Shown here: positions 17,098 through 39,216 of the stretch, piece by piece
Position numbering within the stretch: position 1 is the first letter of the stretch
Layout: each line of letters opens with the position of its first letter
Assembly (NCBI RefSeq): GCF_050920415.1
Contig: NZ_CP169309.1
Source: Escherichia coli
GTDB lineage: Bacteria; Pseudomonadota; Gammaproteobacteria; Enterobacterales; Enterobacteriaceae
Length of the DNA: 64,000 nt
Strand: one strand, 5' to 3'
Made by a program: the position numbers and the translations under genes
Notes under the pieces: generated by a model
What the model was told of the DNA's origin: nothing
What the model saw: only the letters and a program-made list of their open reading frames with translations
Databases searched by the model: none

Positions 17098-17859
17098 ATG
17101 CAATTGAGCAGCAGTGAACCTTGCGTGGTGATCCTGACCGAAAAAGAAGTAGAGGTAAGCGTCAATAACCATGCCACGTTTACCCTTCCGAAAAACTACC
17201 TGGCCGCCTTCGCGTGCAACAATAACGTCATTGAACTCTCAACGTTAAATCACGTATTAATCACCCACATCAACCGTAACATCATCAACGATTATCTGTT
17301 GTTTTTAAATAAGAACTTAACCTGTGTAAAGCCCTGGTCGCGGCTGGCAACCCCGGTTATCGCTTGTCATAGCCGTACACCGGAAGTGTTCCGGCTAGCC
17401 GCCAACCACAGCAAGCAGCAACCCAGCAAACCCTGCGAAGCGGAGTTGACGCGCGCATTGCTTTTTACCGTATTGTCTAACTTTCTTGAGCAATCGCGGT
17501 TTATTGCCCTACTGATGTATATCTTACGCAGCAGCGTCCGCGACAGCGTCTGCCGCATTATTCAAAGCGATATTCAGCATTACTGGAATCTGCGAATTGT
17601 CGCCAGTTCGCTCTGTTTAAGCCCCAGCCTGCTCAAAAAGAAATTAAAAAACGAAAATACCAGCTATAGCCAGATTGTCACAGAGTGTCGTATGCGTTAC
17701 GCCGTACAGATGTTATTGATGGATAACAAAAATATCACTCAGGTAGCGCAATTATGTGGCTATAGCAGCACGTCGTACTTTATCTCTGTTTTTAAGGCGT
17801 TTTACGGCCTGACACCGTTGAATTATCTCGCCAAACAGCGACAAAAAGTGATGTGGTGA
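17098..17859 (+). CDS. envY: AraC-family transcriptional regulator EnvY
   Basis: 253-aa ORF; C-terminal AraC-type HTH (QVAQLCGYSSTSYFISVFKAFYGLTP); matches EnvY. Confidence 0.93.
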   Translation: MQLSSSEPCVVILTEKEVEVSVNNHATFTLPKNYLAAFACNNNVIELSTLNHVLITHINRNIINDYLLFLNKNLTCVKPWSRLATPVIACHSRTPEVFRLAANHSKQQPSKPCEAELTRALLFTVLSNFLEQSRFIALLMYILRSSVRDSVCRIIQSDIQHYWNLRIVASSLCLSPSLLKKKLKNENTSYSQIVTECRMRYAVQMLLMDNKNITQVAQLCGYSSTSYFISVFKAFYGLTPLNYLAKQRQKVMW

Positions 17860-17904
17860 AGGGCAAAGCGGAAACAGATAAGACTGGCATAAATGAAGAA
17901 GAAA

Positions 17905-17949
17905 TGGCGCGCCCTGCAGGATTCGAACCTGCGGCCCACGACTTAGAAG
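17905..17949 (-). other. 45-nt 3' fragment of tRNA-Arg (argU): prophage attachment-site core (distal att)
   Basis: TGGCGCGCCCTGCAGGATTCGAACCTGCGGCCCACGACTTAGAAG is the reverse complement of the argU 3' end (T-arm, acceptor stem, CCA); identity stops after the anticodon-stem region, so it is a fragment, not a gene. Confidence 0.85.
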
Positions 17950-18371
17950 TTCCTAGAACGACATTTTAAGTCAACAAATTACCGCGCCATCTCTGCGCTC
18001 ACACGTCCCACTACCTCAAAACATGTAAAGCCTTGCAAGCCATTGTGAGGCCTTATGTGTCTCAGTTTTGTCCCTCTTTTTTGTACTAAAAAACATAGCA
18101 ATTGAGGATAAACCTCATGCTATTTTCGCTTATATGCCTTTAAAGGCATGGCGTTTAAATAGATAAAAACACCACAAAAGCATAAAAAACCACACAGTAA
18201 AACCGCAACATAAAACAATAACAGATAATTAAACCAAAAACAGATAGCGCATTGTGATAATCATTCAATACTAAACAAAATATAAACAGTGGAGCAATAT
18301 GTGATTGACTCATTAAGTTAGATATAAAAAATACATATTCAATCATTAAAACGATTGAATGGAGAACTTTT

Positions 18372-19325
18372 ATGCGGGCGAAACTTCTGGGAATAGTTCT
18401 GACAACCCCTATTGCGATCAGCTCTTTTGCTTCTACCGAGACTATATCGTTTACTCCTGACAACATAAATGCGGACATTAGTCTTGGAACTCTGAGCGGA
18501 AAAACAAAAGAGCGCGTTTATCTAGCTGAAGAAGGAGGCCGAAAAGTCAGTCAACTCGACTGGAAATTCAATAACGCTGCAATTATTAAAGGTGCAATTA
18601 ATTGGGATTTGATGCCCCAGATATCTATTGGGGCTGCGGGCTGGACTACTCTCGGCAGCCGAGGTGGCAATATGGTCGATCAGGACTGGATGGATTCCAG
18701 TAACCCCGGAACCTGGACAGATGAAAGTAGGCACCCTGATACACAACTCAATTATGCCAACGAATTTGATCTGAATATCAAAGGCTGGCTCCTCAACGAA
18801 CCCAATTACCGCCTGGGACTCATGGCCGGATATCAGGAAAGCCGTTATAGCTTTACAGCCAGAGGTGGTTCCTATATCTACAGTTCTGAGGAGGGATTCA
18901 GAGATGATATCGGCTCCTTCCCGAATGGAGAAAGAGCAATCGGCTACAAACAACGTTTTAAAATGCCCTACATTGGCTTGACTGGAAGTTATCGTTATGA
19001 AGATTTTGAGCTAGGTGGCACATTTAAATACAGCGGCTGGGTGGAAGCATCTGATAACGATGAGCACTATGACCCAGGAAAAAGAATCACTTATCGCAGT
19101 AAAGTCAAAGACCAAAATTACTATTCTGTTGCAGTCAATGCAGGTTATTACGTAACACCTAACGCAAAAGTTTATGTTGAAGGCGCATGGAATCGGGTTA
19201 CGAATAAAAAAGGTAATACTTCACTTTATGATCACAATGATAACACTTCAGACTACAGCAAAAATGGTGCAGGCATAGAAAACTATAACTTCATCACTAC
19301 TGCTGGTCTTAAGTACACCTTTTAA
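18372..19325 (+). CDS. ompT: Outer-membrane protease OmpT (omptin)
   Basis: 317-aa ORF matching OmpT (MRAKLLGIVLTTPIAISSFASTE...); lies between the att fragment and the tail-fibre remnants, i.e. inside the prophage. Confidence 0.96.
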   Translation: MRAKLLGIVLTTPIAISSFASTETISFTPDNINADISLGTLSGKTKERVYLAEEGGRKVSQLDWKFNNAAIIKGAINWDLMPQISIGAAGWTTLGSRGGNMVDQDWMDSSNPGTWTDESRHPDTQLNYANEFDLNIKGWLLNEPNYRLGLMAGYQESRYSFTARGGSYIYSSEEGFRDDIGSFPNGERAIGYKQRFKMPYIGLTGSYRYEDFELGGTFKYSGWVEASDNDEHYDPGKRITYRSKVKDQNYYSVAVNAGYYVTPNAKVYVEGAWNRVTNKKGNTSLYDHNDNTSDYSKNGAGIENYNFITTAGLKYTF

Positions 19326-19344
19326 CGAAGTTAACCAGATTTTC

Positions 19345-19381
19345 TCCCCGGTGGTATTGTATAACCCCGGGGAATTTGTTT
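19345..19381 (+). terminator. Intrinsic terminator after ompT
   Basis: Stem TCCCCGG / CCGGGGA with 16-nt loop followed by ATTTGTTT, 20 nt after the ompT stop. Confidence 0.55.
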
Positions 19382-19511
19382 ACAGTTACAAGTAGGCAAT
19401 ATCCACTAATTTTGTAAGCATTTAACCTATGTCATAACGTGTAATCTCTTACCGCAACACAAGACCTCAATATATTCAAATCTTATCTTTATTCCGATAT
19501 TCAGAGACACA

Positions 19512-20996
19512 ATGCGAAAAATAATCACTCATTTCAAAGTTGTTTTAACGTTACTTCTACCAGTAACCGTATCTGCCCAGCAGATACAGTGGCAATCCTG
19601 TATGGCCAGTCAATTCAACCACTGGTTTGGTGAGGAAAAACCGTCTCCTGACTTACTATGTGGTTATTTGTCTGTTCCATTAAAATATACAGACACAGGC
19701 GGAGATGCTTCTTATGAAAAAAAATCACAAGTCAAACTAGCGTTGACAAAATTGCCGGCAAAAAGCAAGCATAAAGGAAGTATCCTGATAATAAGTGGTG
19801 GTCCCGGGTTACCAGGCATAAATCCTTATATTAACTTTGACTGGCCAGTCACAAATCTTCGTGAGTCATGGGATATTATTGGATTTGATCCTCGAGGCGT
19901 CGGACAGTCCACTCCGACAATAAACTGCCGGCAATCAGATACAGAGACTCAGGAAAACATAACCGAAAAGCAACAAGTATTAAATAAAATTAATGCCTGT
20001 ATCCATAATACCGGAGCCGAAGTCATTCGCCATATCGGCTCTAACGAGGCTGTATACGATATTGATCGTATTAGGCAAGCCTTGGGGGATAAACAACTGA
20101 CAGCCGTGGCGTATTCGTATGGAACTCAAATTGCAGCCTTATATGCAGAACGTTTTCCCTACAACGTAAGATCTATCGTTCTTGATGGAGTCGTCGATAT
20201 CGATGACCTGGAGGACAACTTCACATGGCAACTCAAACAGGCACAGAGTTATCAGGAAACGTTTGATCGCTTTGCATCCTGGTGTGCGCGTACAAAAAGT
20301 TGCCCGCTTTCTTCAGACAGAGATAAGGCAATAACTCAGTTCCATGAGCTATTATCAAAATTACATCACAAACCTTTATTAGACAGTAAGGGAGAAAATA
20401 TATCTTCAGATGAACTCATATCATTAACAACAGACCTTCTGCTATGGCGTTCATCATGGCCAACCCTTGCAACTGCCATACGCCAGTTCTCTCAGGGGAT
20501 TGTCAGTAATGAAATTGAAACTGCGCTCAGTGCTCCGATAGCCTCAGAAGAGTCAAGCGATGCTTCGGGGGTAATCCTCTGTGTAGATCAGGGGGATGAG
20601 CAATTAACACCAGAAGAGCGAAAATCCCGAAAAGACGCTCTTGCGAATGCCTTCCCGGCTATTAACTTTGACAATGGACGTTCCGATTCACCTGATTTTT
20701 GTGAATTATGGCCAATACATAGCGACCTGAACAAAACTCGCCTGAAAAATACTGTTCTGCCCTCTGGTTTACTGTTTGTAGCACACAAATACGACCCAAC
20801 AACGCCCTGGATTAATGCCCGTAAGATGGCAGAGAAATTTTCCAGCCCGTTACTAACAATAAATGGTGATGGGCATACATTAGCTCTCACCGGAGTTAAT
20901 TTATGTGTAGATAAAGCAGTTGTACATTACCTGATCACTCCACAAAAAATAGAAAATATATACTGCCCAGGAAATTCTGAAGCAGAAATACAATAA
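19512..20996 (+). CDS. Secreted alpha/beta-hydrolase, TAP-like / S33 peptidase-like
   Basis: 494-aa ORF with signal peptide, GGPG motif (ISGGPGLPG) and nucleophile elbow AYSYGT; occupies the position where K-12 DLP12 carries appY. Confidence 0.6.
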   Translation: MRKIITHFKVVLTLLLPVTVSAQQIQWQSCMASQFNHWFGEEKPSPDLLCGYLSVPLKYTDTGGDASYEKKSQVKLALTKLPAKSKHKGSILIISGGPGLPGINPYINFDWPVTNLRESWDIIGFDPRGVGQSTPTINCRQSDTETQENITEKQQVLNKINACIHNTGAEVIRHIGSNEAVYDIDRIRQALGDKQLTAVAYSYGTQIAALYAERFPYNVRSIVLDGVVDIDDLEDNFTWQLKQAQSYQETFDRFASWCARTKSCPLSSDRDKAITQFHELLSKLHHKPLLDSKGENISSDELISLTTDLLLWRSSWPTLATAIRQFSQGIVSNEIETALSAPIASEESSDASGVILCVDQGDEQLTPEERKSRKDALANAFPAINFDNGRSDSPDFCELWPIHSDLNKTRLKNTVLPSGLLFVAHKYDPTTPWINARKMAEKFSSPLLTINGDGHTLALTGVNLCVDKAVVHYLITPQKIENIYCPGNSEAEIQ

Positions 20997-21018
20997 TTTC
21001 AAAATATTCCGCTATTTG

Positions 21019-21066
21019 CTCCCAATGCAAAACATATATTGCATTGGGAGCATATTCATATTTTTG
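21019..21066 (+). terminator. Candidate intrinsic terminator after the hydrolase gene
   Basis: Perfect 12-bp stem CTCCCAATGCAA / TTGCATTGGGAG with 8-nt loop, T-run 10 nt downstream. Confidence 0.4.
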
Positions 21067-21179
21067 TTATTATTGTATGAAATCGTCTCATGTACACGGT
21101 CCTTTTTTCGCCGAAAACTGATATTACTTTAATCAAAAGTTGACGTGCCAGATTCGAAGTAAATTTATAAAATATCAAA

Positions 21180-21485
21180 TCAATATACATTTTGCACCTT
21201 CGAGATAGTAATGACTGTTACTGTAACATGAGTTACAAACAGCTTCATACCCAGAGCTACTGATGTATCAACTCGATTCAACAATACCCGATATTTATTC
21301 CATGCCTCCAGCAACGATCTTTCTTCCTCCGTTGCGATTTCCAGATCTACAGCATCCTGCAGTGGCGCAATATACTCACTGAATTCCTGGATGTAGAACT
21401 GTGTGGTGACGGTCTTCCAGCCATTCGGCTCCTGCTGTATCGAAGCATACCAGGCTATTTCAATATCGCTATGCTGCGGCAGCAT
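21180..21485 (-). pseudogene. tfaX: Tail fibre assembly protein remnant (tfaX-like, C-terminal part only)
   Basis: 101-aa ORF whose middle ([38 protein letters not shown]) matches the C-terminus of the intact Tfa at 23996-24571; N-terminus unrelated. Confidence 0.7.
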
Positions 21486-21541
21486 TTAACCCCTTGTAAT
21501 TCATCGCCATAATTGATTTAATTCACAAATAAAACTATAAC

Positions 21542-22210
21542 ATGGTGAAATTAATGAAAAAAAACACAGATGATGGGGCTAAAATTTACACACCACTTAC
21601 CCTAAAGCTTTATGACTGGTGGGTTTTGGGAGTATCAAATCGGCTTGCATGGGGATGTCCTACAAAGGAACACCTTCTTCCACACTTTCTGGAACATTTA
21701 GGTAACAACCATCTGGATATTGGTGTTGGAACTGGGTTTTACCTTACTCACGTACCTGAGAGTAGTCTGATATCTTTAATGGATTTGAACGAAGCTAGCC
21801 TGAACGCGGCATCTACAAGGGCTGGGGAATCAAAAATTAAACATAAAATTAACCATGATGTTTTTGAACCTTATCCCGCGGCGTTACATGGTCAATTTGA
21901 TTCCATTTCCATGTTTTACCTTCTTCACTGCCTGCCTGGAAATATATCTACAAAAAGCTGTGTAATACGCAATGCGGCGCAGGCCTTAACTGACGATGGA
22001 ACTCTATACGGAGCCACAATTCTTGGCGATGGAGTTGTGCACAATAGCTTCGGTCAAAAACTGATGCGCATTTACAATCAGAAAGGCATCTTTTCAAACA
22101 CAAAAGATTCCGAAGAAGGCTTAACACATATACTCTCAGAGCATTTCGAGAATGTTAAAACCAAGGTTCAAGGTACTGTAGTAATGTTTTCCGCTTCAGG
22201 GAAAAAATAG
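21542..22210 (+). CDS. Class I SAM-dependent methyltransferase (ybcY-like)
   Basis: 222-aa ORF with SAM-binding motif I (LDIGVGTGFY); sits between two tfa homologues as ybcY does in DLP12. Confidence 0.6.
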   Translation: MVKLMKKNTDDGAKIYTPLTLKLYDWWVLGVSNRLAWGCPTKEHLLPHFLEHLGNNHLDIGVGTGFYLTHVPESSLISLMDLNEASLNAASTRAGESKIKHKINHDVFEPYPAALHGQFDSISMFYLLHCLPGNISTKSCVIRNAAQALTDDGTLYGATILGDGVVHNSFGQKLMRIYNQKGIFSNTKDSEEGLTHILSEHFENVKTKVQGTVVMFSASGKK

Positions 22211-22575
22211 CATCCAACCGCAGCACGTTCTTGCATAAGGCGTGTCTGCGGTTTTTCAACTATTCAGATACATCACTCCCATCACATTCATTCCTCCGCA
22301 TCATAGGCATATAGGCTATATCACCTTGATATTTTTCTTCTTCAGATAAAAACTGTTATCTATGTATACTTTTAAACCCAATCCGTGTAGAGTCTCTGCA
22401 TAAGATAGTTTGCAGTTGCCACTTCAGCTTGCGCCATAAACCGCCTGATTTTTGCCGCCACCTGTTAGCATTCCTGTATACCTGAAACGACAATGTTTAT
22501 CTACGAACTTTAAGAACACCCAGGATAAAAATTGTCAACTATATCATATATAACACATTACTAATTCGAGGCTAT

Positions 22576-22689
22576 ATGAACAGCATACTGATAATCACTT
22601 CTCTCCTTATCATATTCAGCATTTTTAGTCATGCCCTAATAAAATTAGGGATTGGCATATCCAATAACCCAGACAAAACCGATGTATAA
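22576..22689 (+). CDS. Candidate 37-aa hydrophobic membrane peptide ([37 protein letters not shown])
   Basis: Hand-translated small ORF with GAGG 4 nt upstream of the ATG; single predicted TM helix plus polar tail; AT-rich context. Confidence 0.3.
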
Positions 22690-22724
22690 GTCAACATATC
22701 CTGAATCAGACATACAATATCGCA

Positions 22725-22991
22725 ATGAAAATCAATAATATTTTAAGGAATATCTTCATGAAATCAAAAGACACCCTAAAGTGGTTCCCTGCGCAGCTTC
22801 CTGAAGTAAGAATTATCCTAGGGGATGCTGTAGTGGAAGTAGCAAAACAGGGAAGACCTATCAATACCAGAACATTGCTTGATTACATTGAAGGAAACAT
22901 AAAGAAAAAATCATGGCTGGATAACAAAGAATTATTACAAACAGCGATATCAGTTCTTAAAGACAACCAAAATTTAAATGGTAAAATGTAA
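22725..22991 (+). CDS. Hypothetical 88-aa protein
   Basis: Open frame in AT-rich cargo DNA upstream of the recombinase; no recognised domain. Confidence 0.35.
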   Translation: MKINNILRNIFMKSKDTLKWFPAQLPEVRIILGDAVVEVAKQGRPINTRTLLDYIEGNIKKKSWLDNKELLQTAISVLKDNQNLNGKM

Positions 22992-23307
22992 TATAATAAA
23001 CTTACTTTTTTATCATTTTTCCACTTTAACAACATTTTGCTCCACTTTTCCACGATCAAACAACTTGAAATCTGGTTAAAATAACACGCAACACTATTCT
23101 TCTTCCTTGAGTCCGCCCGGAACTCGAAAAACAAACCGAGTTAAAGCCATTTTTCACAAAATCGATTTTGGGTCTCACCAAAATTACGGGGTTGCATACG
23201 CATTCGTTTATTTTCGAACGTGTACATACAAATATGCACAAAAATAATCAAAATTATTTTCTGAGATGCATTATGATATGAACACCAATTTCGTATAGAG
23301 TCTCACT

Positions 23308-23898
23308 ATGTCTCGAATTTTTGCTTACTGTCGGATATCAACGCTGGATCAGACCATCGAAAATCAACGCCGGGAAATCGAAAGTGCAGGTTTTAAAATC
23401 AAACCTCAGCAAATAATCGAAGAACACATTAGCGGCTCAGCAGCAACCAGTGAGCGTCCTGGTTTTAACCGGTTGCTTGCTCGCCTGAAATGTGGTGATC
23501 AATTGATTGTGACAAAACTGGATCGCCTTGGTTGTAATGCAATGGATATCAGGAAAACAGTGGAACAACTGACCGAAACAGGTATCAGAGTGCATTGCTT
23601 AGCATTGGGGGGCATTGACCTGACCAGTCCAACAGGAAAAATGATGATGCACGTAATTTCAGCAGTCGCTGAATTTGAACGAGACCTTTTACTTGAACGC
23701 ACTCATTCCGGGATAGTAAGAGCCCGCGGCGCAGGGAAACGTTTTGGTCGACCACCTGTGTTAAATGAAGAACAGAAACAGGTGGTATTCGAACGAATTA
23801 AGTCAGGTGTAAGTATAAGTGCCATTGCCCGGGAATTCAAAACCTCGCGGCAAACCATTTTAAGAGCCAAAGCAAAACTTCAGACACCTGACATATAA
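23308..23898 (+). CDS. Small serine recombinase (resolvase/invertase family)
   Basis: 196-aa ORF; N-terminal catalytic motif YCRISTLDQ (Ser nucleophile), resolvase-type core and C-terminal HTH. Confidence 0.85.
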
Positions 23899-23995
23899 AA
23901 AATAATCTCGGTGTGAGATGCTTTACGTCTTCCAAGCCCCCTTCCTTGCCGTAAATGGAAAGATACATCTAATTATAGAATTTATATGTTTTACC

Positions 23996-24571
23996 CTACG
24001 GCAGTGCTGGCCATTCAATATCCTGTGCAGTTGACGTATCAACACGGTTCAGCAACACCCGATACTTTTTCCAGGCTTCCAGCAATGAGGTTTCTTCCTC
24101 CGTTGCGATTTCCAGATCTACAGCATCCTGAAGTGGCGCAATATGCTCACTGGCTACCTGCATCAGGCTGTTTTTTGTTTCTTCCGCCTCTCGGATCCGG
24201 AACAGTTTTTCTGCTTCTGCATCTTTCACCCAGGCTGTGCCGTTCCACTTCTGAAACTCCCCTTCCGGCGATAACCAGGTAACATTTTCCGGTAACGGAC
24301 CGAGTTCAGAAATAAATAACGCGTCCCCTGACGCTACGTCATAAACCGTTTTACCCCGATGGTCTTCAACGAGATGCCACGATGCCTTATCACTGTTGAA
24401 AACAGCCACAAAGCCAGCAGGAATATCTGGTGGTGCAATATCGGTACTGTTTGCTGGCAGACCTGTATGAGGCGGAATATATGCGTCACCTTCACCAATA
24501 AATTCATTAGTTCCGGCCAGCAGATTATAAATTTTTATGGTCCGTGGTTGTTCACTCATTCTGAATGCCAT
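23996..24571 (-). CDS. tfa: Tail fibre assembly protein Tfa
   Basis: 191-aa ORF immediately downstream of stf; lambda Tfa-like. Confidence 0.9.
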
Positions 24572-27537
24572 TATGCAAGCCTCACAATATAGTTAAATGC
24601 GATGTTTTTGACGGTGTTTTCCGCGTTACCAGCAGCGTTAACGGTGATGGTGTGTCCATGTGAACCAATCGCAACGGAGTGCGTATGAGCACCAATACCG
24701 ACAGTATGCGCGTGTGCACCTGCAGATGCTGCTGTGCCGGACAGTGAATGGCTATGATTACCATCTGTACTGGTATTCGCTAACCACCCCGTAGACATAC
24801 CTACTGAGCCTTGTACACCCCAGGTATTTTGACCTGAGCTTGTATAACCATATTGATAAGTATCTTTAAAAACACTGGGGTTAAATCGACGGCCATCTCT
24901 ATGGCTGTGATTACCAGCTGCATTCGTGCTGCCACTTAAACTATGGGTATGCGCACCAGTGTTATTCGTGGATTTAGTGCCGTAATCAAACGACGATGTG
25001 GTTTTCGTCCCCAAATCCGTACTGGATGCGCTGGCGCTGTGGGTATGCGATTTAATGCCGTCCTGTTCCTGAGACAATACGGCCCGACCACTGGCAGGTT
25101 TGCCCTTAATCGTCCAGCCACGCATATCAGGGATCACGCCTGACGGATAAGCGGCTGCAAGTTTCGGGTATGCAGATTTGTCAAAAGTCTGCCCCTGCAT
25201 CAGGGCATAGCCAGACGGAACGGTATCTGATGGCCACGGGATTGGTGCGCCAGGCGGATAAAACTGCTCTGATGGCGTATAGAGTGAATAAACTGTACCG
25301 TCCGTTAACCCTTCCGGCTTATTAGCAGAATATGCTGGTGACGTATGAATCGTCACGCTGGCATTACTGGTATAATCCCATTGAATATTTACACCAGTCG
25401 CATAATTTCCGATTGCAACGTAAATATCGTAAGTATCACCAGATGTATTGACCCAGGCAAAATTTGTAAACCCTGTCGATGTGCGCTGCCATAAAGCACC
25501 AGTAATCCCCTTCGGATTACCATTACCTGCACGTAAAACAAGTTCAGATATACCTGCCTGTTGAGGTGACCCCACGTTAAATCCAGCGCCACCAATCAAC
25601 GTAATTGAAACAACAGAACTCGCCTGTGGCATGGTTACCGTTGCTAATTTGAACCAACCAGCACCACCGCTGAATGACATTGTTGTTGAGTTAAGCGTAC
25701 CAATATCTTTCGGCGTCAGTGTTATATCCGCTGAAAGCGCCTTACCATTCACCTTACGGGCAGAAGGTACCCGACCATTCGCATTGTCATTAGCTGCTTT
25801 CACTGCTTTCGGTGTCGCAGCAAGCGTTTCAGATGTGCTGTTGGTTGCACTACTGAGCTGGACAATTCCTTTTTGTGCTGTCGTAGCGTCCTGTGCGGTG
25901 TATTTCCCGTTAGCCAGGTCATACGCGGCCTTAACGGCTTTTGGCGTTGCCGCCTGTGACTCGGAAGTGCTGTTAGTCGCACTGCTGAGCTGAACTATCC
26001 CTTTCTGTGCTGTCGTTGCATCCTGTGCGGTGTATTTCCCGTTAGCCAGGTCATACGCGGCCTTAACGGCTTTTGGCGTTGCCGCCTGTGACTCGGAAGT
26101 GCTGTTGGTCGCACTGCTGAGCTGTACTATCCCCTTTTTCGTCGTGCTCGCATCCTCAAGCGCCACGGCGGATGCAATATCCTCTGCCCGTTTTGCTGCT
26201 GTCTCGGCGCGCGTTGCCGCGGATTCCGCCGTACTTTTGCTCTGTGCTGCCGCTGCCGCACTGCCAGCAGCCTCTGTCGCCTTCGTGGATGCCGTCGTGG
26301 CGCTGCCCCTCGCTGCTGACGCCTGTCTGGTCGCCTCATCTTTTGAAGCAGACGCAGATGATGCCGATGACGCCGCCGAACTGGCGGACGATGCGGCAGC
26401 CGTTTTTGAGGATTCTGCGCTGGTTTCCGACGCTTTCGCGTTCGTTTCGGATGTCTTCGCTGCGGAAGCAGACCTCGCTGCTGCGCTGGCCTGTTCAGTG
26501 GCTTCGCCAGCCTTCGTTGTGGCTGTTGAAGCGGATGATGCGGCGCTTTCTGCCGATTTTCCGGCGGCGGTGGCACTGACTGCTGCCTCCTCTGCCTTAA
26601 TGGACGCCTCACGGGCCGATGATGCAGCTGCTGTCTCAGAGTCTGCCGCAGCTGAGGCGCTCTGTTCCGCTGCCGTTTCAGAAGACCTGGCATTCGTCTC
26701 GGACGTTTTTGCCGCCTTCACGGAATTTCCTGCCGCCGTTGCCGAGGAGGCTGCACTGCTGGCGCTTGTGGAGGCGTTCGTTTCTGATGATTTTGCCGCC
26801 TCTTTGGAGGCCGCCGCATCTCTGGCTGAAGTGGCGGCTTCTGACGCTTTCGTCGTCGCAGTGGATGCAGAAGTGGCTGCTGATTTTTGTGACGCTGCAG
26901 CATTCGTTTCTGACGTTTTCGCCGCACCGGCACTGGTGGCCGCCGCGCTTTTTGAGGACTCTGCAGCGGCAGCACTTTTTGATGCTTCAGTGGCCTTTGT
27001 TGATGCCGTTCCTGCGCTGGAAGACGCCTCCTGAGCCGAAGTCGCGGCCTGTCCGGCTGACGTGCTGGCTGCACGCGCTGAGCCTGCAGCATCAGTCGCA
27101 TGGGTTGCCGCCTCACGGGCAGATGTGCCGGCATCACTGGCTGACTTCTTCGCGGCTGCCGTGTTCTGTGCCACCGCGGACGCGTTACGCGTCACCTCTT
27201 CCACCATCAGTTCAAAACGGCGCAGAGCCTCCGGACGGGCATCATCCTCCGTCATGGCACCGAGAAAATCATTCAGCGTACCGGGTCGGGAATCTTCATA
27301 CACGGTGATGGTCCCGGCATGTGACGGCGGGAATCCTTCCACCAACAGAATAACGCTGTACTGACCGTACTCAACGTCCATGCTGTAACGCCCGGCTTCA
27401 TCCGGATTTTCTGAGGCCAGCGTGTTCACCACCACCGTGGTGCTGTTACGTTTTGCTTTCAGCTGGATTGTGCAGTTCTGTACCGGTTTTCCTGTGCCGT
27501 CTTTCAGTACACCTGAAATCTTTACTGCCATATTCAC
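24571..27537 (-). CDS. stf: Side tail fibre protein Stf (long form, Ala/Ser/Thr-rich repeats)
   Basis: 988-aa ORF after lom; conserved phage tail-fibre N-terminus ([17 protein letters not shown]...), internal 44-aa tandem repeats, C-terminal receptor-binding region. Confidence 0.9.
25795..26165. repeat. Approx. 132-bp tandem direct repeats (about 3 copies) inside stf
   Basis: Near-identical DNA blocks encode repeated [44 protein letters not shown] units; boundaries approximate. Confidence 0.7.
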
Positions 27538-27595
27538 CCCACAAAAAAGCCCGCCTGAACCGGCGGGCTGTCATAACACTGTGTTACCTGGCTAA

Positions 27596-28195
27596 TCAGA
27601 ACTTATAACCGACACCCACGATGAAACCGTCAGTGCGCCAGTCGCCACTGCCGGAGCCTTCATAAGCAATATCAATGGCCACGGATTCGGTCGGGTTAAA
27701 CTGCACGCCAGCTCCCCACGCCAGAGACGTGTTGCTGTGGCGACCGTCATCACTTCCGGTCAGCACGTCGTGCGTTTTCCCCTTGTTGTCAGTTACGCGG
27801 AGATAATCCCCGGAGAAAGTCGACACACGGCTGTAAGCCACACCCGCCATCGCATACGCGCTGAACCATTCATTCACGCGCACAGACGGCCCCGCCATTA
27901 CGCTGAACCAGCGGTTACGAACGGAATCTTCATGCCAGCGAGTATCGCTGTAATGGGTCAGCTGGCGATTCTTGTCTCCTGCATAGCTGAATGACGTCAC
28001 CAGCCCCAGCGTATCCGTAAACTCATAACGGTATTTCACGTTAATCCCGTTCAGATCATCACTGCCGGGAACGTTGGTCCGGGCATGAAGATACCCCGCG
28101 CTCAGCGTGGACTGATGTTCAGACGCCCATGCAGGCGCACCGGATACGGCCAGACAAATGGCTGCGGACAAAATGGCGGCACAAACTTTACGCAT
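27596..28195 (-). CDS. lom: Lom outer-membrane protein (Ail/Lom family)
   Basis: 199-aa ORF with signal peptide, near-identical to lambda Lom; canonical position after J. Confidence 0.92.
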   Translation of the reverse strand: MRKVCAAILSAAICLAVSGAPAWASEHQSTLSAGYLHARTNVPGSDDLNGINVKYRYEFTDTLGLVTSFSYAGDKNRQLTHYSDTRWHEDSVRNRWFSVMAGPSVRVNEWFSAYAMAGVAYSRVSTFSGDYLRVTDNKGKTHDVLTGSDDGRHSNTSLAWGAGVQFNPTESVAIDIAYEGSGSGDWRTDGFIVGVGYKF

Positions 28196-28265
28196 AATTA
28201 CCTCTCGCTTTTCTGCAATAAAAAAGGCGTCATTCCTGACGCCATTTATTGGGGTTATAAATATT

Positions 28266-31200
28266 TCAACGAATACTGATGCCGGAAGCCGCTTTTTTGG
28301 TCACAATCACCGTACAGTCGGTGATATTGCCTGCCCCCTGATTGCCTTTCTGGAAAATCTTAAACTCCAGAGTGACGCTACCACCACCACTAGGCATATC
28401 AATAACTGCACTGTAACTACCGGGAATGGCCCCTTTAGTTTCTCTGGATGCGATTAATACGCCGTTTTTGCGAACTTCAAAACCATAACCCGTGTATCGC
28501 GTGCCTCCTGGGTTATTTCCGCTCCCCGGATCGTCATACGCTATACCGTTAAAAATAATGGGCGGAATAATAATCTGGCGGTCAAAGTTATGATCATCGC
28601 TGATGGTGACTGTAACCGTACCGTTTGGTGTTTCCGTGTTACCCCACGTACCGACTTTTTTCGGGAAGGCTTTTGATACAGCTTTAACGAAATCCCCTCT
28701 GACCTGGGTCGCCTCCAGCATGCCCTTAATCGTACAGTTTTCATTTACCGTGACATTGTTGAGCGTTCCTGAGTTCGCATTCACACTACCACTGATATCC
28801 GCATTTTTAGCGGTCAGCTTTCCGTCTGATGTCAGGGAAAATACCGGAGGACTGCCACCGCTGGTAATGGTGGGGGCTGTCAGGCGCTTCAGGAACACGT
28901 CGTTCATGAATATCTGGTTGCCCTGCGCCACAAACATCGGCGTTTCATTCCCGTTTGCCGGGTCAATAAACGCGATACGATTGGCGGCAACCAGAAACTG
29001 GCTCAGCTTGCCTTCCTCCGTGTCCTCCATGCTGAGGCCAATACCCGCGACATAATGTTTGCCGTCTTTGGTCTGCTCAATTTTGACGCCCCACATAGCA
29101 TTCCATTTATCGTTAGCGTCCTTCCACTCTTTCGAAAACTCATCCAGTCTGCTGGCGTTATCCTCCGTCAGGTCGACTTTTTCCAGCAGCTCTTTACCGA
29201 GATGGGATTCGGTTATCTTGCCTTTGAAAAAATCCAGGTAACCTTCCGCATCATCGCTCGCCCGACCGACGGCCTCCACGAATGCCGATTTGCCAACGGT
29301 GTTCACACTGCGGATATAAAAGTAATAATCATGGCCCGGTTTGATATTGATACTGGCGGCTATCCAGTACAGCCCCGTGCCAAGGTAGCGGGCTGTGGTT
29401 TCAACCTGCCTGATATCGGTAATCCGCGTTTCCGAGAACCAGAACTCAAACTGTACCGTCGGATCATAAACCGCAAGATGCGGCGTGGCGGTTATCTGAA
29501 AATAGCCCGGCGTCAGCTCAATCCGCGACGGCGCTGCCGGGGCGGCAATCCGGAACGATACCGACGCCGGATCGCCCTGCTGTCCCCGGGCATTTACCGC
29601 TCGGACCGTCAGCGTGTAACGCCCCAGCGTCAGTTGCCTGAAGCGGTAAGTGGTTTCCGTCGTCCGGGCCGTGCTGACCAGCCGCTCACTGCCGTCATCG
29701 GCGGCCACGGTCAGGCGAAGCATAAAGCTCACGCCCTTCACCACCTTCGGCGTATCCCAGCGCGCCAGCACCTGGTATTCCCCGCTGTCTGCGGTGACTT
29801 CGGCGGTCAGGTGCTGCACCGCTGGCGGCGTGACACCATTCACCGTGCCGCTCTGGTCGCCGTCAAAGTGCGCCCCGTTATCCACGATGGCTTCTTTTTC
29901 CGGTACATGCTGCACGGCGGTGATGGCATACGTGCCGTCGTCGTTCTCACGGATACTCACGCAGCGGAACAGGCGCTGGCGCAGCGTCGGCAGCTTCAGC
30001 CCCCACACGCTGTATTCAGCAACGCCGTCAGGAACACGGCTCACTTTCACCTTCACGCCGTCGGTGACGGACTGAACCTCCACGCTGACCGGATTGCCAC
30101 TTCCGTCAACCAGGCTTATCAGCGTGGTACCGGAGGATGGCAGCGTGATTTCACGGTCGAGCGTCAGCGTCCGGGTCTGGCTGTTTACCGCCAGCACGCG
30201 ACCACCGGTGCTGATACCGGCATAGTCATCATCGCAGATTTCAATGACATCGCCCGGTACATGGCGAAGCCCTTCAGCACCCACGCTGAAGTCCACGGTC
30301 TGCGTTTCCAGCAGTTCCGTTTTAATCAGCCACAGCCCGGCGCGGTGCGCCTGCCCCCGGCTGGTACAGCCAAAGGCATCCATCTTCGTGACGTTACGAC
30401 CGTAACGGGCAATGGCCTGCGCATCTTCAACAAGCTCTGTCGCCGTCTCCCAGCCGTTATCCGGGTCAATCCAGTTCACCTCAACGGCATTATGGCGGTC
30501 CTTCAGGGCGCTGAAACTGTAGCGGAACGGCGCGCCATCATCCGGCATCACCACATTACTGCGGTTATAGGTCCACACCTTATCTGATGGTCGGTCCTGC
30601 ACGAACGTCAGCGTCTGCCCGTTCCATACCGGCATACAGCGCATCGCCGAGCAGAAATCACTGAGCACATCCCACGCCTTACGCTGCGTGGTCAGGTAGG
30701 CATTACAGGTGATGCGCGGCTCCGTGCCGCCAAAACCGTCCGGCACTGACTGGTCGCAGTACTGGCCGATGACATACAGCGCCCATTTATCCACATCCGC
30801 CGCACCAAGACGTTTCCCCATGCCGTAGCGCGGATGGGTCAGCATATCCCACAGACACCAGGCCATGTTGTTGCTGTATGCCGGTTTAAACGTTCCGTCC
30901 CAGATACCGCTGTATTGCCGCGTCTGCGGGTTATAGTTCGACGGCACCTGCAGAATGCGCCCGCGCAGATGATAATTACGGCTCACCTGCTGGCTGCCGA
31001 ACTGCTCCGAATCCACCTGCACGCCGACCAGTGCCGTGTTCGGGTAGCCCTGTTTCACATCGATGATTTCGGTGTATGACGACCAGAGCGTTTTGTTCTG
31101 CAGCTGGTCTGTGGTGCTGTCCGGCGTCATCCTGCGCATCCGGATATTAAACGGGCGCGGCGGCAGGCTACCCACCACCACCGAGGCCAGATACTGCGAG

Positions 31201-31679
31201 GTGGTTTTGCCCTTAATGGTGATGTCTTTTTCCGTCACCCAGCCACCGTTACGTTGTATCTGAACCAGCAGACGGACTTCCGACGGATTCCTGTCACCCT
31301 TTGAGGTGGTTTCCACCAGTGCCTGTACACCGAAGGTAAAGCGCAGACGGTCGATGTTTGCAGACGTAATGGTGCGGGTGATCGGCGTGTCATATTTCAC
31401 TTCCGTACCCAGCACCGTCTCGGAGCCGGAGGATTCAAACCCCTCCGGCGGTGTCTGCTCCTGCTCACCGGCACGGAACACCACCGTGACACCGGAGATG
31501 TTGGTATTCCCCTCAGTGTCCAGCACCGGCGTACTGTTCAGCAGCACGCTTTTTAATCCATCCACCGGACCTTCAACCGGCCCTTCGCTGATGGCATCGA
31601 TCACACTCAGCAACTGCGTGGACTTCAGGTTGTCCTTCGCTTCGCGCGGGGTATGCCCCTTACTGCTTCCTTTACCCAT
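28266..31679 (-). CDS. J: Tail tip host-specificity protein J
   Basis: 1137-aa ORF matching lambda J ([26 protein letters not shown]...). Confidence 0.95.
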
Positions 31680-31739
31680 TCCTCACGCTCCATAAATGAC
31701 AAAACCGCCCGCAGGCGGTTTCACATAAAACATTTTGCA

Positions 31740-32411
31740 TCAGCGACCAATCACCACAACCTGACCACCGTCCCCTTCGTCTGCCGTGCTGATCTCCTGA
31801 GAAACCACGCGTGACCCCACGCGCATTTCCCCGTACAGAACAGGCAGAACATTGCCCTGGGCAACCATGTTATCCAGTGAGGAGAAATAGGTGTTCTGCT
31901 TACCGTTATCCGTTGTCTGTGTACGGGGAGTTCTGGCTTTCGGTGCCAGCATCTGCGCCACACCACCGAGCACCATACTGGCACCGAGAGAAAACAGGAT
32001 GCCGGTCATACCACCGGCCCCAATGGCTGCCCCCCATGCTGCAAGGGTGGCTCCGGCGGTAAAGAATGATCCGGCAATGGCGGCAGCCCCCAGGACAATC
32101 TGGAATACGCCACCTGACTTGGCCCCGGCGACTCTGGGAACAATATGAATCACAGCGCCATCAGGCAGAGTCTCATGTAACTGCGCCGTTAACCCGGACG
32201 TGCTGACGTCCCGCCCGGCAATCCGTACCTGATACCAGCCGTCGCTCAGTTTCTGACGAAACGCCGGGAGCTGTGTGGCCAGTGCCCGGATGGCTTCAGC
32301 CCCCGTTTTCACACGAAGGTCGATGCGGCGACCAAATCGTTGTAAATCCCCGTAAAGGCAGATGCGCGCCATGCCCGGTGACGCCAGAGGGAGTGTGTGC
32401 GTCGCTGCCAT
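31740..32411 (-). CDS. I: Tail assembly protein I
   Basis: 223-aa ORF, lambda gpI length, overlaps K as in lambda. Confidence 0.9.
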   Translation of the reverse strand: MAATHTLPLASPGMARICLYGDLQRFGRRIDLRVKTGAEAIRALATQLPAFRQKLSDGWYQVRIAGRDVSTSGLTAQLHETLPDGAVIHIVPRVAGAKSGGVFQIVLGAAAIAGSFFTAGATLAAWGAAIGAGGMTGILFSLGASMVLGGVAQMLAPKARTPRTQTTDNGKQNTYFSSLDNMVAQGNVLPVLYGEMRVGSRVVSQEISTADEGDGGQVVVIGR

Positions 32412-33052
32412 TTGTCGGTGTACCTCTCTCGTTTGCTCAGTTGTTCAGGAATATGGTGCAGCAGCTCGCCGTCGCCGCAGTAAATTGCGGCGTGATTCGG
32501 CACCGATGAACCAAAACAGCACAGCAGCACATCGCCCGGCTGTGCCGCTGACAACGGCACCTGATACAGCCCCGTCGCCTCCAGATTATCCAGATAGAGA
32601 TTCTGGCCGTTACGCCACCAGTCATCCTCACGATGAAAGTCCGGCATCTCAATCCCCGCCAGATGATAAGCATCCCGGAACAGTGTGTAACAGTCCGTCA
32701 CACCGTGCTCAAAGCGCCGCCCGGTGAGATGCGGCACACAGCGGAACTTATGAATCGTCCCCCGGCAGACCAGCCACCACGGCAAATCACTCTGCACCTG
32801 CAGCCGCCGGTCGGCCTCACTCAGCCAGGGCAGACCACCGGGGTGGCTGTGGACCAGCGCCACAATCTCACCCTGCATTTCTGCCTGCAGCCAGTCTTCC
32901 GGCGACATACGGAAATACGCCTCCGGCTCACCGGAGATATTCACGCAGGGGAAATATCTTTCCCCCTCCGGCGTGCTTACCACGAAGCCGCACGACTCCG
33001 CTGGCGCACATCGCCGGGCGTGCGCCAGAATCGCTGATTCTGTCTGTGTCAT
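32309..33052 (-). CDS. K: Tail assembly protein K (NlpC/P60-like)
   Basis: ORF directly after L in lambda order; Cys/His peptidase-like motifs. Confidence 0.88.
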   Translation of the reverse strand: MTQTESAILAHARRCAPAESCGFVVSTPEGERYFPCVNISGEPEAYFRMSPEDWLQAEMQGEIVALVHSHPGGLPWLSEADRRLQVQSDLPWWLVCRGTIHKFRCVPHLTGRRFEHGVTDCYTLFRDAYHLAGIEMPDFHREDDWWRNGQNLYLDNLEATGLYQVPLSAAQPGDVLLCCFGSSVPNHAAIYCGDGELLHHIPEQLSKRERYTDKWQRRTHSLWRHRAWRASAFTGIYNDLVAASTFV

Positions 33053-33057
33053 GGGAT

Positions 33058-33756
33058 TTACTGCGAAAGTTTGTTAATGGAAAGGAAGCCGCCAAAGTTG
33101 CCGACGTTATTGCGGAACTTACAACCGCTCAGGCATTTGCTGCATTTATCCTTCGTGATATCGGACGTTGGCTGGTCATATTCATCCGCGACAGCCGGAC
33201 CGCTATAACCGCACTCGTCACCGCGATAGGTCCAGGTGCAGGTGTTGGCCAGCATGATACGTCCCGGAAAAACAGCGCCATCCGTTTCCGTCGGCGTGGA
33301 CAGTACAAAGGAGGCACTCACCGCGCTCAGTTCGCTGCACTGCTCAATGCGCCAGCGGCTGATCACCTCCTGCTCCGGATCGGCATAACTGTTTCCGTTG
33401 ACGAAGTTCACCGCATCCAGAAAACGGGCGTAAACCTTACGCCGGACCACCGTTCCGCCGACCAGACTCTGCATATCTTCCGCCATCCCGGTGACCATAC
33501 CGTACAGGTTAGAAACCGTCAGCGTGGGGCGCGTACTGGTGCCTTTGCCATTCAGTTCAAAACCGCTCCCCTGAATGGGATACGGCTGATACTGTCGCCC
33601 CTGCCAGGTGACCGGCTCACCTTTTTCGTTCTGCTCATTACAGAAAAAATAACGTTCTCCACCGACCTCTGTCAGGTCGATTTCCCAGAGCACCACGCTG
33701 GCCGACTGCTCCGCACGGGTGCATTCATTCAGTGTTTCCTGCCGGATATCCTGCAT
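33058..33756 (-). CDS. L: Minor tail protein L
   Basis: 232-aa ORF, lambda gpL length and order. Confidence 0.9.
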   Translation of the reverse strand: MQDIRQETLNECTRAEQSASVVLWEIDLTEVGGERYFFCNEQNEKGEPVTWQGRQYQPYPIQGSGFELNGKGTSTRPTLTVSNLYGMVTGMAEDMQSLVGGTVVRRKVYARFLDAVNFVNGNSYADPEQEVISRWRIEQCSELSAVSASFVLSTPTETDGAVFPGRIMLANTCTWTYRGDECGYSGPAVADEYDQPTSDITKDKCSKCLSGCKFRNNVGNFGGFLSINKLSQ

Positions 33757-34085
33757 CAGTTCACCACCTGTTCAAACTCTGCGCTGAACTCAACACGCAG
33801 CATACTGACCCGCGACGACCATTTTGCGCAGGTCACCTTTATCTGCCGCCACTCATAAGGCGGCGTCCACAGAAAGGATTTCCAGCCCCCGTGCTCTTCC
33901 AGAAACGACTCCAGTACCGTGGCCTCCTCACGGGGGACAGAAAGCGTCACGCTGTACGTTTTCAGGTTGGCATTCAGCCCGGCAGGCGCTCGCTGAGAAT
34001 AGCCATCACCAAAGCGCACCTTTCTTACAGAAGGGACCGAAGCCACATCCATACCGGGTTTCACTTTCCAGCGGAAGGTCTTCAT
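33756..34085 (-). CDS. M: Minor tail protein M
   Basis: 109-aa ORF, lambda gpM length and order. Confidence 0.9.
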   Translation of the reverse strand: MKTFRWKVKPGMDVASVPSVRKVRFGDGYSQRAPAGLNANLKTYSVTLSVPREEATVLESFLEEHGGWKSFLWTPPYEWRQIKVTCAKWSSRVSMLRVEFSAEFEQVVN

Positions 34086-36643: not shown

Positions 36644-36685
36644 ACCGGACTCCTCCTGCGATCCCTTCTGATACTGTCATCAGCA

Positions 36686-37066
36686 TTACGTCATCTCCGT
36701 CATGTCCGCCACATCCGGGGAAGCGGGGATAACTTCATTCCCGTCCGGGCCAAAGCGGACACCTCCGGCAAGCCCTGCCGCTTTCTGCATCAGCACATCA
36801 TCTTCAGGCTCTTCGTCAGCCTCGCGCCGGTTCAGCAGACTGAAATCCAGCGGATGCATATCCGGATCGCTGAAAAACAGGCTGAGCACGGTGTACGTCA
36901 GCCCGGAAAAGTGCATATCCAGCAGAACATCATGAAAATAATGGGTACTGTAAAAGCGGTGCCAGTCGGCATACTCCGTGGATGACATCCCGGCAAGCAT
37001 GGCACGCCAGTCAGGTCGCCCCATCTCACGCGCCAGTTTCAGGGCAAAACTCAGCTCACCGTCGAA
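36686..37066 (-). CDS. T: Tail assembly chaperone T frame (normally made only as a G-T fusion by -1 frameshift)
   Basis: Open frame matching lambda T (FDGELSFALKLAREMGRPDWRAMLAG...), no independent start; frame relationship to G is abnormal here (see findings). Confidence 0.7.
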   Translation of the reverse strand, partial: FDGELSFALKLAREMGRPDWRAMLAGMSSTEYADWHRFYSTHYFHDVLLDMHFSGLTYTVLSLFFSDPDMHPLDFSLLNRREADEEPEDDVLMQKAAGLAGGVRFGPDGNEVIPASPDVADMTEMT

Positions 37067-37472
37067 CACTTTCCCGCAGAAACAGGCTCTGCGGGCCCGG
37101 CGTCCTCTGTCTGTTCAGGGCATTATTCACCACAAACTCATACATACCAGACAGCCGGTACACCACGTTTTCAGCATGAGAAATTGCCTCCGTGGGCCAG
37201 GTGGTAAGCACTTCCTGCTCAATCTGTTTAACGGCTTCATTCATGGACGGCAGCTTTGTCTTCTGCGGATGGTTATGCCACAGGGACATCGCCACCAGAA
37301 ACGCGCCGGTTCTGATGGCGTCTTCCACAGTAAACTTCCGGTTGCTGTCTGACTCCGCCTGTTCTGCCTGCCGTTTCATCAGGGCGAGATGCTCAATGCG
37401 CTGCAGGGCTGACAGTTCAGAAAGCGTGACGGTCACACCGTTATGTTCAAATGATTCGGTTTTCAGGAACAT
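37056..37472 (-). CDS. G: Tail assembly chaperone G (C-terminus altered by a 1-nt deletion)
   Basis: 138-aa ORF matching lambda G up to ...EFVVNNA, then a divergent 21-aa tail ending in a different frame; slippery GGGAAAG is present but out of phase. Confidence 0.85.
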   Translation of the reverse strand: MFLKTESFEHNGVTVTLSELSALQRIEHLALMKRQAEQAESDSNRKFTVEDAIRTGAFLVAMSLWHNHPQKTKLPSMNEAVKQIEQEVLTTWPTEAISHAENVVYRLSGMYEFVVNNALNRQRTPGPQSLFLRESVRR

Positions 37473-37487
37473 CGCTGACTCTCCGGA

Positions 37488-37739
37488 TTAACTGTCGGTG
37501 ACAGTGATTTCTGCAACCGCAGCAAGTTCACCATTACCGGATAAAACCGGAATGTTGACCTTACCTGCAGCAACGCCTTTCACGGTGATGGTCATACCAC
37601 TGACCGACACGGTGGCTTTTGTTTTATCCGCTGACACCGCACGGAAGCTCTTGTCAGTTGCGCCCTCCGGCTGGAATGCCACGGTCAGCGTGGTGCTCTG
37701 CCCTTTCACCACCGAGGAGCTGGCAGGCGTCACGGTCAT
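37488..37739 (-). pseudogene. V: Major tail protein V, C-terminal Ig-like domain fragment (out of frame with the N-terminal part)
   Basis: 83-aa ORF matching lambda V C-terminus ([24 protein letters not shown]...). Confidence 0.75.
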
Positions 37740-37753
37740 ACCGGTTGCCGCTG

Positions 37754-38227: not shown

Positions 38228-38234
38228 ATCGTCC

Positions 38235-39205: not shown

Positions 39206-39216
39206 ACATCCCCCTT

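Follow-up and report, generated by a model that had tools for sequence, protein, structure and literature searches.

The stretch of Escherichia coli DNA analysed here (64,000 nt, from contig NZ_CP169309.1; hereafter the window) carries, immediately beyond the chromosomal gene envY, a short copy of the 3' end of the tRNA-Arg gene argU, followed by the outer-membrane protease gene ompT, a gene for a 494-aa alpha/beta hydrolase, the remnant of a tail fibre assembly (tfa) gene and the remaining genes of a lambda-like prophage. The features on which the argument depends are listed below with coordinates and strand.

17098..17859, plus: envY, the last chromosomal gene ahead of the prophage and outside the element (RefSeq annotation of collinear genomes)
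17903..17949, minus: almost certain int-distal attachment site (attR equivalent), made up of the 45-nt argU fragment at 17905-17949 (tRNA sense on the minus strand) and 2 further nt
17950..64000, no strand: lambda-like prophage body, cut by the window end (collinear genomes; sequenced phages)
17950..18371, plus: phage arm of the attachment site and AT-rich ompT leader or regulatory region (shared flank, GC 0.36)
18372..19325, plus: ompT, omptin outer-membrane protease, 317 aa (NCBIfam NF008222, phrog_19858)
19330..21255, no strand: cassette of variable content, not found in K-12 (blastn comparison of the window with DLP12 of K-12)
19512..20996, plus: 494-aa TAP/Hip1-type alpha/beta serine hydrolase, predicted to be exported (Pfam, Hip1 alignment, phrog_20134)
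21017..21052, plus: terminator-like hairpin of 14 pairs, 20 nt past the hydrolase stop codon
21180..21485, minus: tail fibre assembly gene remnant, tfaX equivalent (RefSeq 'tail fiber assembly protein, incomplete')
21542..22210, plus: class I SAM-dependent methyltransferase, intact counterpart of the K-12 pseudogene ybcY (phrog_2132)
23308..23898, plus: Pin-type serine DNA invertase (pinR-like)
23996..27537, minus: tail fibre assembly gene, intact (23996-24571), with the side tail fibre gene (24571-27537), together marking where the structural module ends
24425..46162, minus: head-tail structural module, from side tail fibre to terminase large subunit (gene names from a collinear genome)

OmpT matches NCBIfam NF008222 over residues 1-317 of 317 with 708 bits (cut-off 537), and the ompT region is 97.6% identical to K-12 at the DNA level. 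OmpT and the hydrolase each have one PHROG family match, and neither the methyltransferase nor the tfa remnant received a family-level name from NCBIfam. The tfa remnant is Tfa-like only in its C-terminal part, PHROG tail fibre assembly families hitting residues 28-76 only, and window positions 21256-22251 align to tfaX-ybcY of K-12. The flank at 17950-18371 is shared with the ev243 attP and with the DLP12 end in K-12. It includes one promoter-like site (18305-18332), but over the scanned cargo region as a whole such sites were no more frequent than chance (8 found, 11.2 expected). We infer that ompT and the hydrolase gene have expression signals of their own, active in the lysogen, and that their products change the cell envelope by proteolysis.

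The argU repeat and the empty site

Positions 17905-17949, with the letters TGGCGCGCCCTGCAGGATTCGAACCTGCGGCCCACGACTTAGAAG, are an exact 45-nt copy of the 3' end of argU, and correspond to the reverse complement of its last 45 nt, a segment that starts with the first anticodon-loop base and finishes with CCA. The argU references were those of K-12 MG1655 and two other strains, and as the match is exact in all three, the fragment is argU and no other tRNA. It occurs once in the window even with 3 mismatches permitted, and had no match in 100 shuffles of the sequence. The sequence shared with the int-argU junction, which was read in relatives, goes 2 nt past the tRNA 3' end, and the repeat is therefore 47 bp (17903-17949). 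The argU fragment begins 45 nt past the envY stop codon (17859), a spacing equal to that of intact argU in empty-site strains, and its orientation is that of intact argU in related lysogens, making the two copies direct repeats. An earlier note on this DNA had described an exact 45-nt argU fragment between envY and ompT, oriented as the distal att site of an argU-integrated phage, and had named a match to a different tRNA as a possible refutation; the exact and unique match and the direct repeat are in agreement with this description, and identity with argU of three strains rules out the other tRNA. ARAGORN and Rfam found no intact tRNA over the whole window. In the record of phage Turner the att core bears the label 'tRNA-Pro' (84 nt), but ARAGORN detects no tRNA there or in the window, and we have therefore treated this label as an annotation artefact.

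The boundary is defined by a near-isogenic strain, MFDS1022581, in which 17948 of the 17949 positions corresponding to window 1-17949 are identical (99.994%, one mismatch), and in which the equivalent of 17949 is followed by the rest of argU and then fimZ, with neither a prophage nor ompT between envY and argU. This strain thus has an empty site, with the break exactly at 17949, and the comparison with empty-argU strains that the earlier note had proposed places the junction at the repeat. The attB rebuilt from the window and a relative is uninterrupted in a maximum of 2445 of the 5426 complete E. coli genomes, and approximately 45% of them have an empty argU site.

It could be argued that ompT and the hydrolase are ordinary chromosomal genes beside a 45-mer that is a chance match or belongs to another tRNA, since ompT of E. 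coli K-12 is commonly regarded as a housekeeping outer-membrane protease and ARAGORN detects no tRNA in the window. However, all 45 nt match argU exactly, where chance would give 0 such matches, and in the empty-site genomes envY is followed directly by argU and fimZ, without ompT. Base composition also argues against such an origin: GC is 0.36-0.46 in the cargo block versus 0.50-0.57 in the chromosomal genes nfrA and ybcH on the left, with an intermediate 0.45-0.48 in envY, which adjoins the junction. The argU match and the empty site of MFDS1022581 together refute a chromosomal origin, to which we attach practically no credence.

Free phage genomes and integration at argU

In the sequenced phages ev243, 2G7b, Turner and PhiR26_1 the order int, attP, ompT, hydrolase, tfa remnant and methyltransferase is contiguous, which bears out the earlier placement of ompT, the hydrolase and the tfa remnant inside the element, in the equivalent of the lambda b region. 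The window is 99.4-99.7% identical to these four phages and to PhiR30_1 and PhiR49_1 over the stretch from the att core to the methyltransferase, which includes the ompT-hydrolase block. The attP of ev243 consists of the int-side flank, the core and the ompT-side flank, an order also found in Turner, and the two prophage junctions are reciprocal hybrids of it. Turner is collinear with most of the window prophage at 95-99.6% identity, and sequenced phages cover 94-97% of the structural half of this prophage at approximately 97% identity. In contrast, immunity, replication and accessory genes of the early region differ between the phages and the window (Turner, for instance, carries an emrE/qacE-like gene at the place of the PD-Lambda-1 gene and antirepressor module of the window), and the side tail fibre region of ev243 (Nesevirus ev243) is unlike that of the window. 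Only 54-56% of the block is covered by phages Kati and PhiR68_2, whose hydrolase slot is occupied by a transcriptional regulator. Mathieu et al. (2020) labelled an outer-membrane protease SopA in two temperate lambda-like isolates (PMC6969025), which are presumably ev243 and 2G7b; a literature search by name for ev243, 2G7b and Nesevirus found nothing relevant.

The integrase and intact argU of the source genome lie beyond the window, and the second att copy is therefore seen in relatives only. Strain XH990 is collinear with window 10687-42298 at 98.9%, and strain Z0117EC0116 with the last 18.8 kb (45174-64000) at 99.9%; in both, the prophage ends in intD and an intact tRNA-Arg approximately 3.75 kb beyond the equivalent of the window end, the interval containing bet, exo, small genes, intD and argU. 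In these two genomes and in K-12, intD is 1164 nt long and lies 15 nt from argU. In the collinear genomes the proximal core copy is part of the intact argU and points the same way as the distal copy. These relatives are mosaic, and no examined genome is collinear with the entire window: the early region of XH990 diverges, and Z0117EC0116 has a 10.9-kb element inserted in its portal gene. The source genome probably has intD and argU approximately 3.75 kb beyond the window, the size of the prophage is estimated as 49.8 kb, and the prophage is presumably still inducible.

A different history would make the argU fragment, ompT, the hydrolase and the tfa remnant the relic of an older, decayed prophage, with a full-length phage arriving later and having its own boundary further right, such that ompT would not be its cargo. 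Tandem or nested integrations can indeed leave a pattern such as the tfa remnant and the intact tfa gene, which are 2.5 kb apart on the same strand and have 120 bp in common at 90% identity, and lambdoid prophages at argU are highly mosaic. Against this, a search of the window for further att-core copies, as a test for tandem or nested integration, found none with up to 3 mismatches, the sequenced phages carry int, attP, cargo and tail fibres as one molecule of 45-48 kb, and the near-isogenic empty-site strain lacks the whole block at this locus, ompT included. We therefore consider a decayed relic very improbable. The segment 17903-17949 is almost certainly the int-distal attachment site of a lambda-like prophage of the DLP12/Nesevirus ev243 type in argU, and with the argU fragment as the far att site of the prophage, ompT and the neighbouring hydrolase are phage-carried.

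Integration would have proceeded as follows. The target would be the 3' portion of argU, which encodes tRNA-Arg(UCU), and a lambda-like temperate phage would recombine into it by means of its tyrosine integrase. The final 45 nt of argU are also present in the phage attP, and Campbell-type integration would rebuild an intact argU beside int and leave a second copy of the 45-nt segment beside envY. The core is identical in attP and attB, and for this reason the phage-derived copy is not distinguishable by sequence. All DNA to the right of 17949 is almost certainly of phage origin, including ompT, the hydrolase, the tfa remnant, the methyltransferase, small genes, the Pin invertase and the tail fibre genes, and this puts ompT and the hydrolase between attP and the tail fibre genes, where lambda has its b region. 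Both are thus morons, accessory genes carried along in the genome of the virion.

An argU-targeting lambda-like phage that carries ompT explains the presence of ompT in some E. coli and its absence in others. The outlines of this have been familiar since the characterisation of DLP12 and can be read from present annotations and phage records: the K-12 annotation puts ompT in DLP12, the 47-bp argU repeat has been published, the phages have been sequenced, and the form with the hydrolase exists in 832 of 5426 complete genomes. The value of the present analysis is in a near-isogenic occupied and empty pair that fixes the boundary to the base, in a window that holds a full-length relative of DLP12, and in the identification of the uncharacterised hydrolase beside ompT as a Hip1-family enzyme.

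The hydrolase, and comparison with DLP12, lambda and Hip1

The slot between ompT and the tfa remnant contains the hydrolase in approximately 15% of complete E. coli genomes, with appY as the alternative (821 of the 5426), and the hydrolase is carried by functional argU phages. Its sequence matches Abhydrolase_1 (PF00561, 5e-33) and TAP-like Abhydrolase_4 (PF08386, 2e-15), and aligns over its full length with Mycobacterium tuberculosis Hip1 (PDB 7sfm, E 8e-52), including the motifs of the catalytic triad: Ser202 (YSYGT), Asp428 (DP.TP) and His455 (GHT). The N-terminus, as read from the sequence, resembles a signal peptide ending in ...VSA|QQ. NCBIfam gave no family-level name for this protein, only sub-threshold matches to prolyl aminopeptidase, and a PADLOC match ('C3a206 TAP-like protein') is a generic family match that we did not take as indicating a role in defence. 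The closest relatives outside E. coli, at 45-55% identity, are from Budvicia, Salmonella, Serratia, Pantoea and Providencia. The literature searched contained no discussion of the argU-phage hydrolase, and its assignment, by sequence, as a full-length Hip1 homologue with an intact catalytic triad is the sole and modest addition made here to what is known. It might be a second phage-borne envelope hydrolase acting, alongside OmpT, on host or bacterial surface proteins or peptides, and a lysogenic-conversion factor comparable to the immune-modulating protease Hip1 of M. tuberculosis, but we regard this role as unlikely.

The cryptic prophage DLP12 of K-12 is integrated at the same site as the window prophage, with the same 47-bp core and identical flanks on both sides, and is annotated in the K-12 record at 564755..586056, beginning within argU and ending shortly after ompT. 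Its 47-bp argU-like attR has been published (PMC6379469), and the arrangement argU-intD ... appY-ompT-attR was given by Lindsey et al. (1989), as cited in that paper. Reading inwards from the att site, both prophages have ompT, tfaX, ybcY, tfa ... nohD, lysis genes, nmpC, quuD and rusA. DLP12 differs in having lost the entire 21.7-kb head-tail module (window 24425-46162), such that in K-12 the tfaD part, the counterpart of window 24009-24425, is fused to the aaaD terminase fragment, the counterpart of window 46162 onward. It alone has IS3 and IS5 insertions and a broken nmpC, and in place of the 1.9-kb hydrolase cassette at 19330-21255 it has 1572 bp with appY, while the window additionally has ynaM, ydfK and pinR between the methyltransferase and tfa. 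The DLP12-like gene order, the full-length structural module and the replacement of appY by the hydrolase, all three put forward in the earlier note, are thus seen by blastn against K-12.

The b region of lambda likewise consists of non-essential genes that lie between the tail fibre genes and attP and encode envelope proteins, as does the cargo of the window prophage. The lambda b region is not known to contain an omptin or an alpha/beta hydrolase, and lambda integrates at an attB between gal and bio, without a tRNA gene as target. The same prophage in the window also carries homologues of the lambda lysogenic-conversion genes lom and bor.

Hip1/CaeA (Rv2224c; PDB 7sfm, 5ugq) is a cell-envelope serine hydrolase (PMC4022732) of a different organism with a different envelope. 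Distant kin of the window hydrolase, 29-37% identical, are found among family members of Nocardia and Mycobacterium. Hip1 and the window hydrolase have in common the layout of Abhydrolase_1 followed by a TAP-like C-terminal domain, aligned Ser-Asp-His motifs, and an N-terminal export signal, which in the window protein is a prediction.

The argU fragment and the prophage end

As the earlier note had claimed, an exact 45-nt fragment of the argU 3' end lies between envY and ompT (17905-17949, TGGCGCGCCCTGCAGGATTCGAACCTGCGGCCCACGACTTAGAAG), and this observation is confirmed. Reverse-complemented, the 45-mer is identical to the final 45 nt of argU, tRNA-Arg(UCU), a segment that starts at the anticodon loop's first base and finishes with CCA; the identity is exact in three references, K-12 MG1655 and the collinear lysogens XH990 and Z0117EC0116. 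A chance match or derivation from a different tRNA is excluded by this exact identity, by its single occurrence in the window with up to 3 mismatches allowed, and by the absence of any match in shuffled windows. Two further bases 3' of the tRNA are common to the int-argU junction, extending the repeat to 47 bp (17903-17949). ARAGORN and Rfam found no intact tRNA in the window. The fragment starts 45 nt from the envY stop, the same gap that precedes intact argU in prophage-free strains. Read in the tRNA sense, the flank on the phage side of the core starts TGGCGCG (window 17905-17989; phage Turner sequence 6391-6474), which probably accounts for the 'tRNA-Pro' label that the Turner record gives to this region (6391-6474); we rejected that label, as ARAGORN calls no tRNA in the window or in Turner.

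Three independent tests, using an empty site, the other prophage end and free phage genomes, agree in supporting the fragment as a prophage end, the distal att site of an argU-integrated phage. The near-isogenic strain MFDS1022581, in which the window's rare 2.2-kb islet (cusS/nfrB gap, present in only 4 of 5426 genomes) also occurs, differs from window 1-17949 by one base. Its alignment ends exactly at 17949, where the strain goes on GTCGTTGCTC..., the remainder of argU, and then fimZ. An attB assembled in silico by joining window 16900-17949 to the 5' portion of argU and fimZ from a relative was matched as a single piece at 99.4% identity; among 5426 complete genomes, up to 2445 have at least 80% of it at one place. 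Collinearity with XH990 spans window 10687-42298 (98.9%), and that with Z0117EC0116 spans 45174-64000 (99.9% identity, gapless); in both strains the prophage ends in intD, 15 nt, intact tRNA-Arg and then fimZ. The intact argU and integrase anticipated at the other end are thus present in these relatives, and in the genome under study would lie beyond the window. In Z0117EC0116 coordinates the argU core is 3754 bp past the window end, so that the prophage would measure ~49.8 kb.

The block from core to methyltransferase is 99.4-99.7% identical in the phages Turner, ev243, 2G7b, PhiR26_1, PhiR30_1 and PhiR49_1, and in all six the match starts at the core. Both ev243 and Turner run from exo through small genes, integrase, core, ompT, hydrolase, tfa remnant and methyltransferase to the tail fibres. 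The ev243 attP comprises int-side flank, core and ompT-side flank; the window junction comprises envY flank, core and ompT flank, and the argU junction int flank, core and argU 5' part. These three structures form the Campbell pattern. An older relic, comprising fragment and cargo, to which a newcomer phage was added is contradicted, since the window holds no second core, the sequenced phages have the entire block on a single molecule, and MFDS1022581 lacks the block. The phages also bear out the proposal that ompT and the hydrolase are cargo inside the element. Temperate lambda-like coliphages have been isolated from infant E. coli strains, two of them carrying an outer-membrane protease labelled SopA after a virulence-factor database (Mathieu et al. 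2020, PMC6969025); we infer these two to be ev243 and 2G7b.

Cargo genes and the hydrolase

Left of the junction lie cusCFBA, cusRS, nfrB, nfrA, ybcH and envY, as in all E. coli genomes examined. GC content falls from 0.50-0.57 in nfrA and ybcH through 0.45-0.48 in envY to 0.36-0.46 in the cargo.

Genes to the right of the junction
18372-19325, plus strand, ompT
19512-20996, plus strand, 494-aa alpha/beta hydrolase
21180-21485, minus strand, tfa remnant
21542-22210, plus strand, SAM-dependent methyltransferase
between 22210 and 23308, plus strand, ynaM and ydfK homologues
23308-23898, plus strand, Pin invertase
23996-24571, minus strand, intact tfa
24571-27537, minus strand, side tail fibre
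27596 onward, minus strand, lom, J and the remainder of a complete lambda-type tail and head module, to terminase

Rightward of terminase follow lysis genes, an intact NmpC/Lc-type porin, Q, the nin region, replication genes and the repressor region, the last genes of the window being gam and bet. A match to Rfam family IS009 (24030-24228, 227 bits) falls wholly within the intact tfa coding sequence, and a ~120-bp stretch is repeated at 90% identity in the tfa remnant (21261-21381); this 'RNA' may be just a conserved tfa 3' segment.

The hydrolase has Abhydrolase_1 (5e-33) and TAP-like C-terminal (2e-15) Pfam domains. Among solved structures its best match is M. tuberculosis Hip1/CaeA (PDB 7sfm, 5ugq; E 8e-52, residues 21-475), with which its YSYGT (Ser202), DP.TP (Asp428) and GHT (His455) motifs match up. 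Hip1, a serine protease of the cell envelope, cleaves GroEL2 and has a dampening effect on macrophage activation (PMC4022732). Read by eye, residues 1-22 (MRKIITHFKVVLTLLLPVTVSA) resemble a Sec signal peptide. The protein belongs to a 90%-identity cluster of 4002 member sequences named solely 'alpha/beta hydrolase', its nearest relatives outside E. coli (45-55% identity) being in Budvicia, Salmonella, Serratia, Pantoea and Providencia; it and OmpT each fall in an existing PHROG family without assigned function. It also matches PADLOC PDLC01094, 'C3a206, TAP-like protein' (E 6e-57), which we treat as a generic family match. A 14-pair hairpin with a T-rich tail lies just 3' of its stop codon, and promoter-like sites in the cargo region were not above chance frequency.

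In integration, attP is recombined by the phage integrase with the 3' segment of argU; the 45 nt supplied by the phage preserve an intact tRNA gene, and the duplicate stays at the far end. Because of their place between tail fibre genes and attP, ompT and the hydrolase would be packaged and moved with the phage. OmpT cleaves cationic antimicrobial peptides. In the lysogen, OmpT and the hydrolase would then be on hand as envelope and periplasmic hydrolases. The structural findings are shown by the sequences, and cargo expression, prophage inducibility and a substrate of the hydrolase are presumed.

Other loci

The islet (8523-10686) has genes for one SMI1/KNR4 family protein and two hypothetical proteins. 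XH990 and K-12 lack it, and a match to at least 80% of it exists in just 4 of 5426 complete E. coli genomes. Proteins of the SMI1/KNR4 family frequently serve as immunity proteins in polymorphic toxin systems. A 500-aa DUF4041 protein (56520-58022), encoded between ren and an antirepressor in the early region of the prophage, matches the anti-phage defence model PD-Lambda-1 (E 2e-198), and its RefSeq relatives are named 'DUF4041' or 'SNIPE associated domain' protein. Rfam places C4 antisense RNA (55754-55839, minus strand) and isrK (55864-55936, minus strand) immediately 5' of a P22AR-type antirepressor gene (55099-55707); 55099-55936 is a P1/P7-style antirepressor control module within a lambda-like prophage. 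The window portal gene (42743-44344) is intact. In the Z0117EC0116 argU prophage the portal gene is split by a ~10.9-kb insert (32550-43434 of that locus, outside the window), which encodes a tyrosine integrase, primase, SSB, major capsid protein, head decoration protein and small terminase and looks like a capsid-forming phage satellite.

Comparison with DLP12

In the K-12 record the cryptic prophage DLP12 (564755..586056) starts 45 nt before the argU end and stops between ompT and envY. We aligned this region to the window.

Alignment of the K-12 DLP12 region to the window
K-12 nfrA through ompT stop; window 15506-19329; 97.6%
K-12 1572 bp with appY; window 19330-21255 (1926 bp with hydrolase); no similarity
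K-12 tfaX-ybcY; window 21256-22251; 97.3%
K-12 part of tfaD; window 24009-24425; 96.9%
K-12 aaaD, nohD ... nmpC; window 46162-52038; 98.5%

The head-tail module (window 24425-46162) has therefore been lost whole from K-12, and the earlier note was correct both in describing the structural module as full length here, unlike that of DLP12, and in placing the hydrolase in the slot that appY occupies in K-12. The two cargo forms are near-equal in frequency (hydrolase 832 genomes, appY 821, counting those with at least 80% of the query). The porin gene (50999-52096, 365 aa, OmpC/PhoE-like), flanked by the Q antiterminator and lysis genes, is intact, in contrast to its IS5-broken K-12 counterpart nmpC. 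The argU repeat is 47 bp here, in agreement with the length published for DLP12 (PMC6379469). Given that repeat, the recorded DLP12 boundaries and the deposited phages with the same cargo, this content was already known, and the sole, modest addition to it is the assignment of the hydrolase to the Hip1 family.
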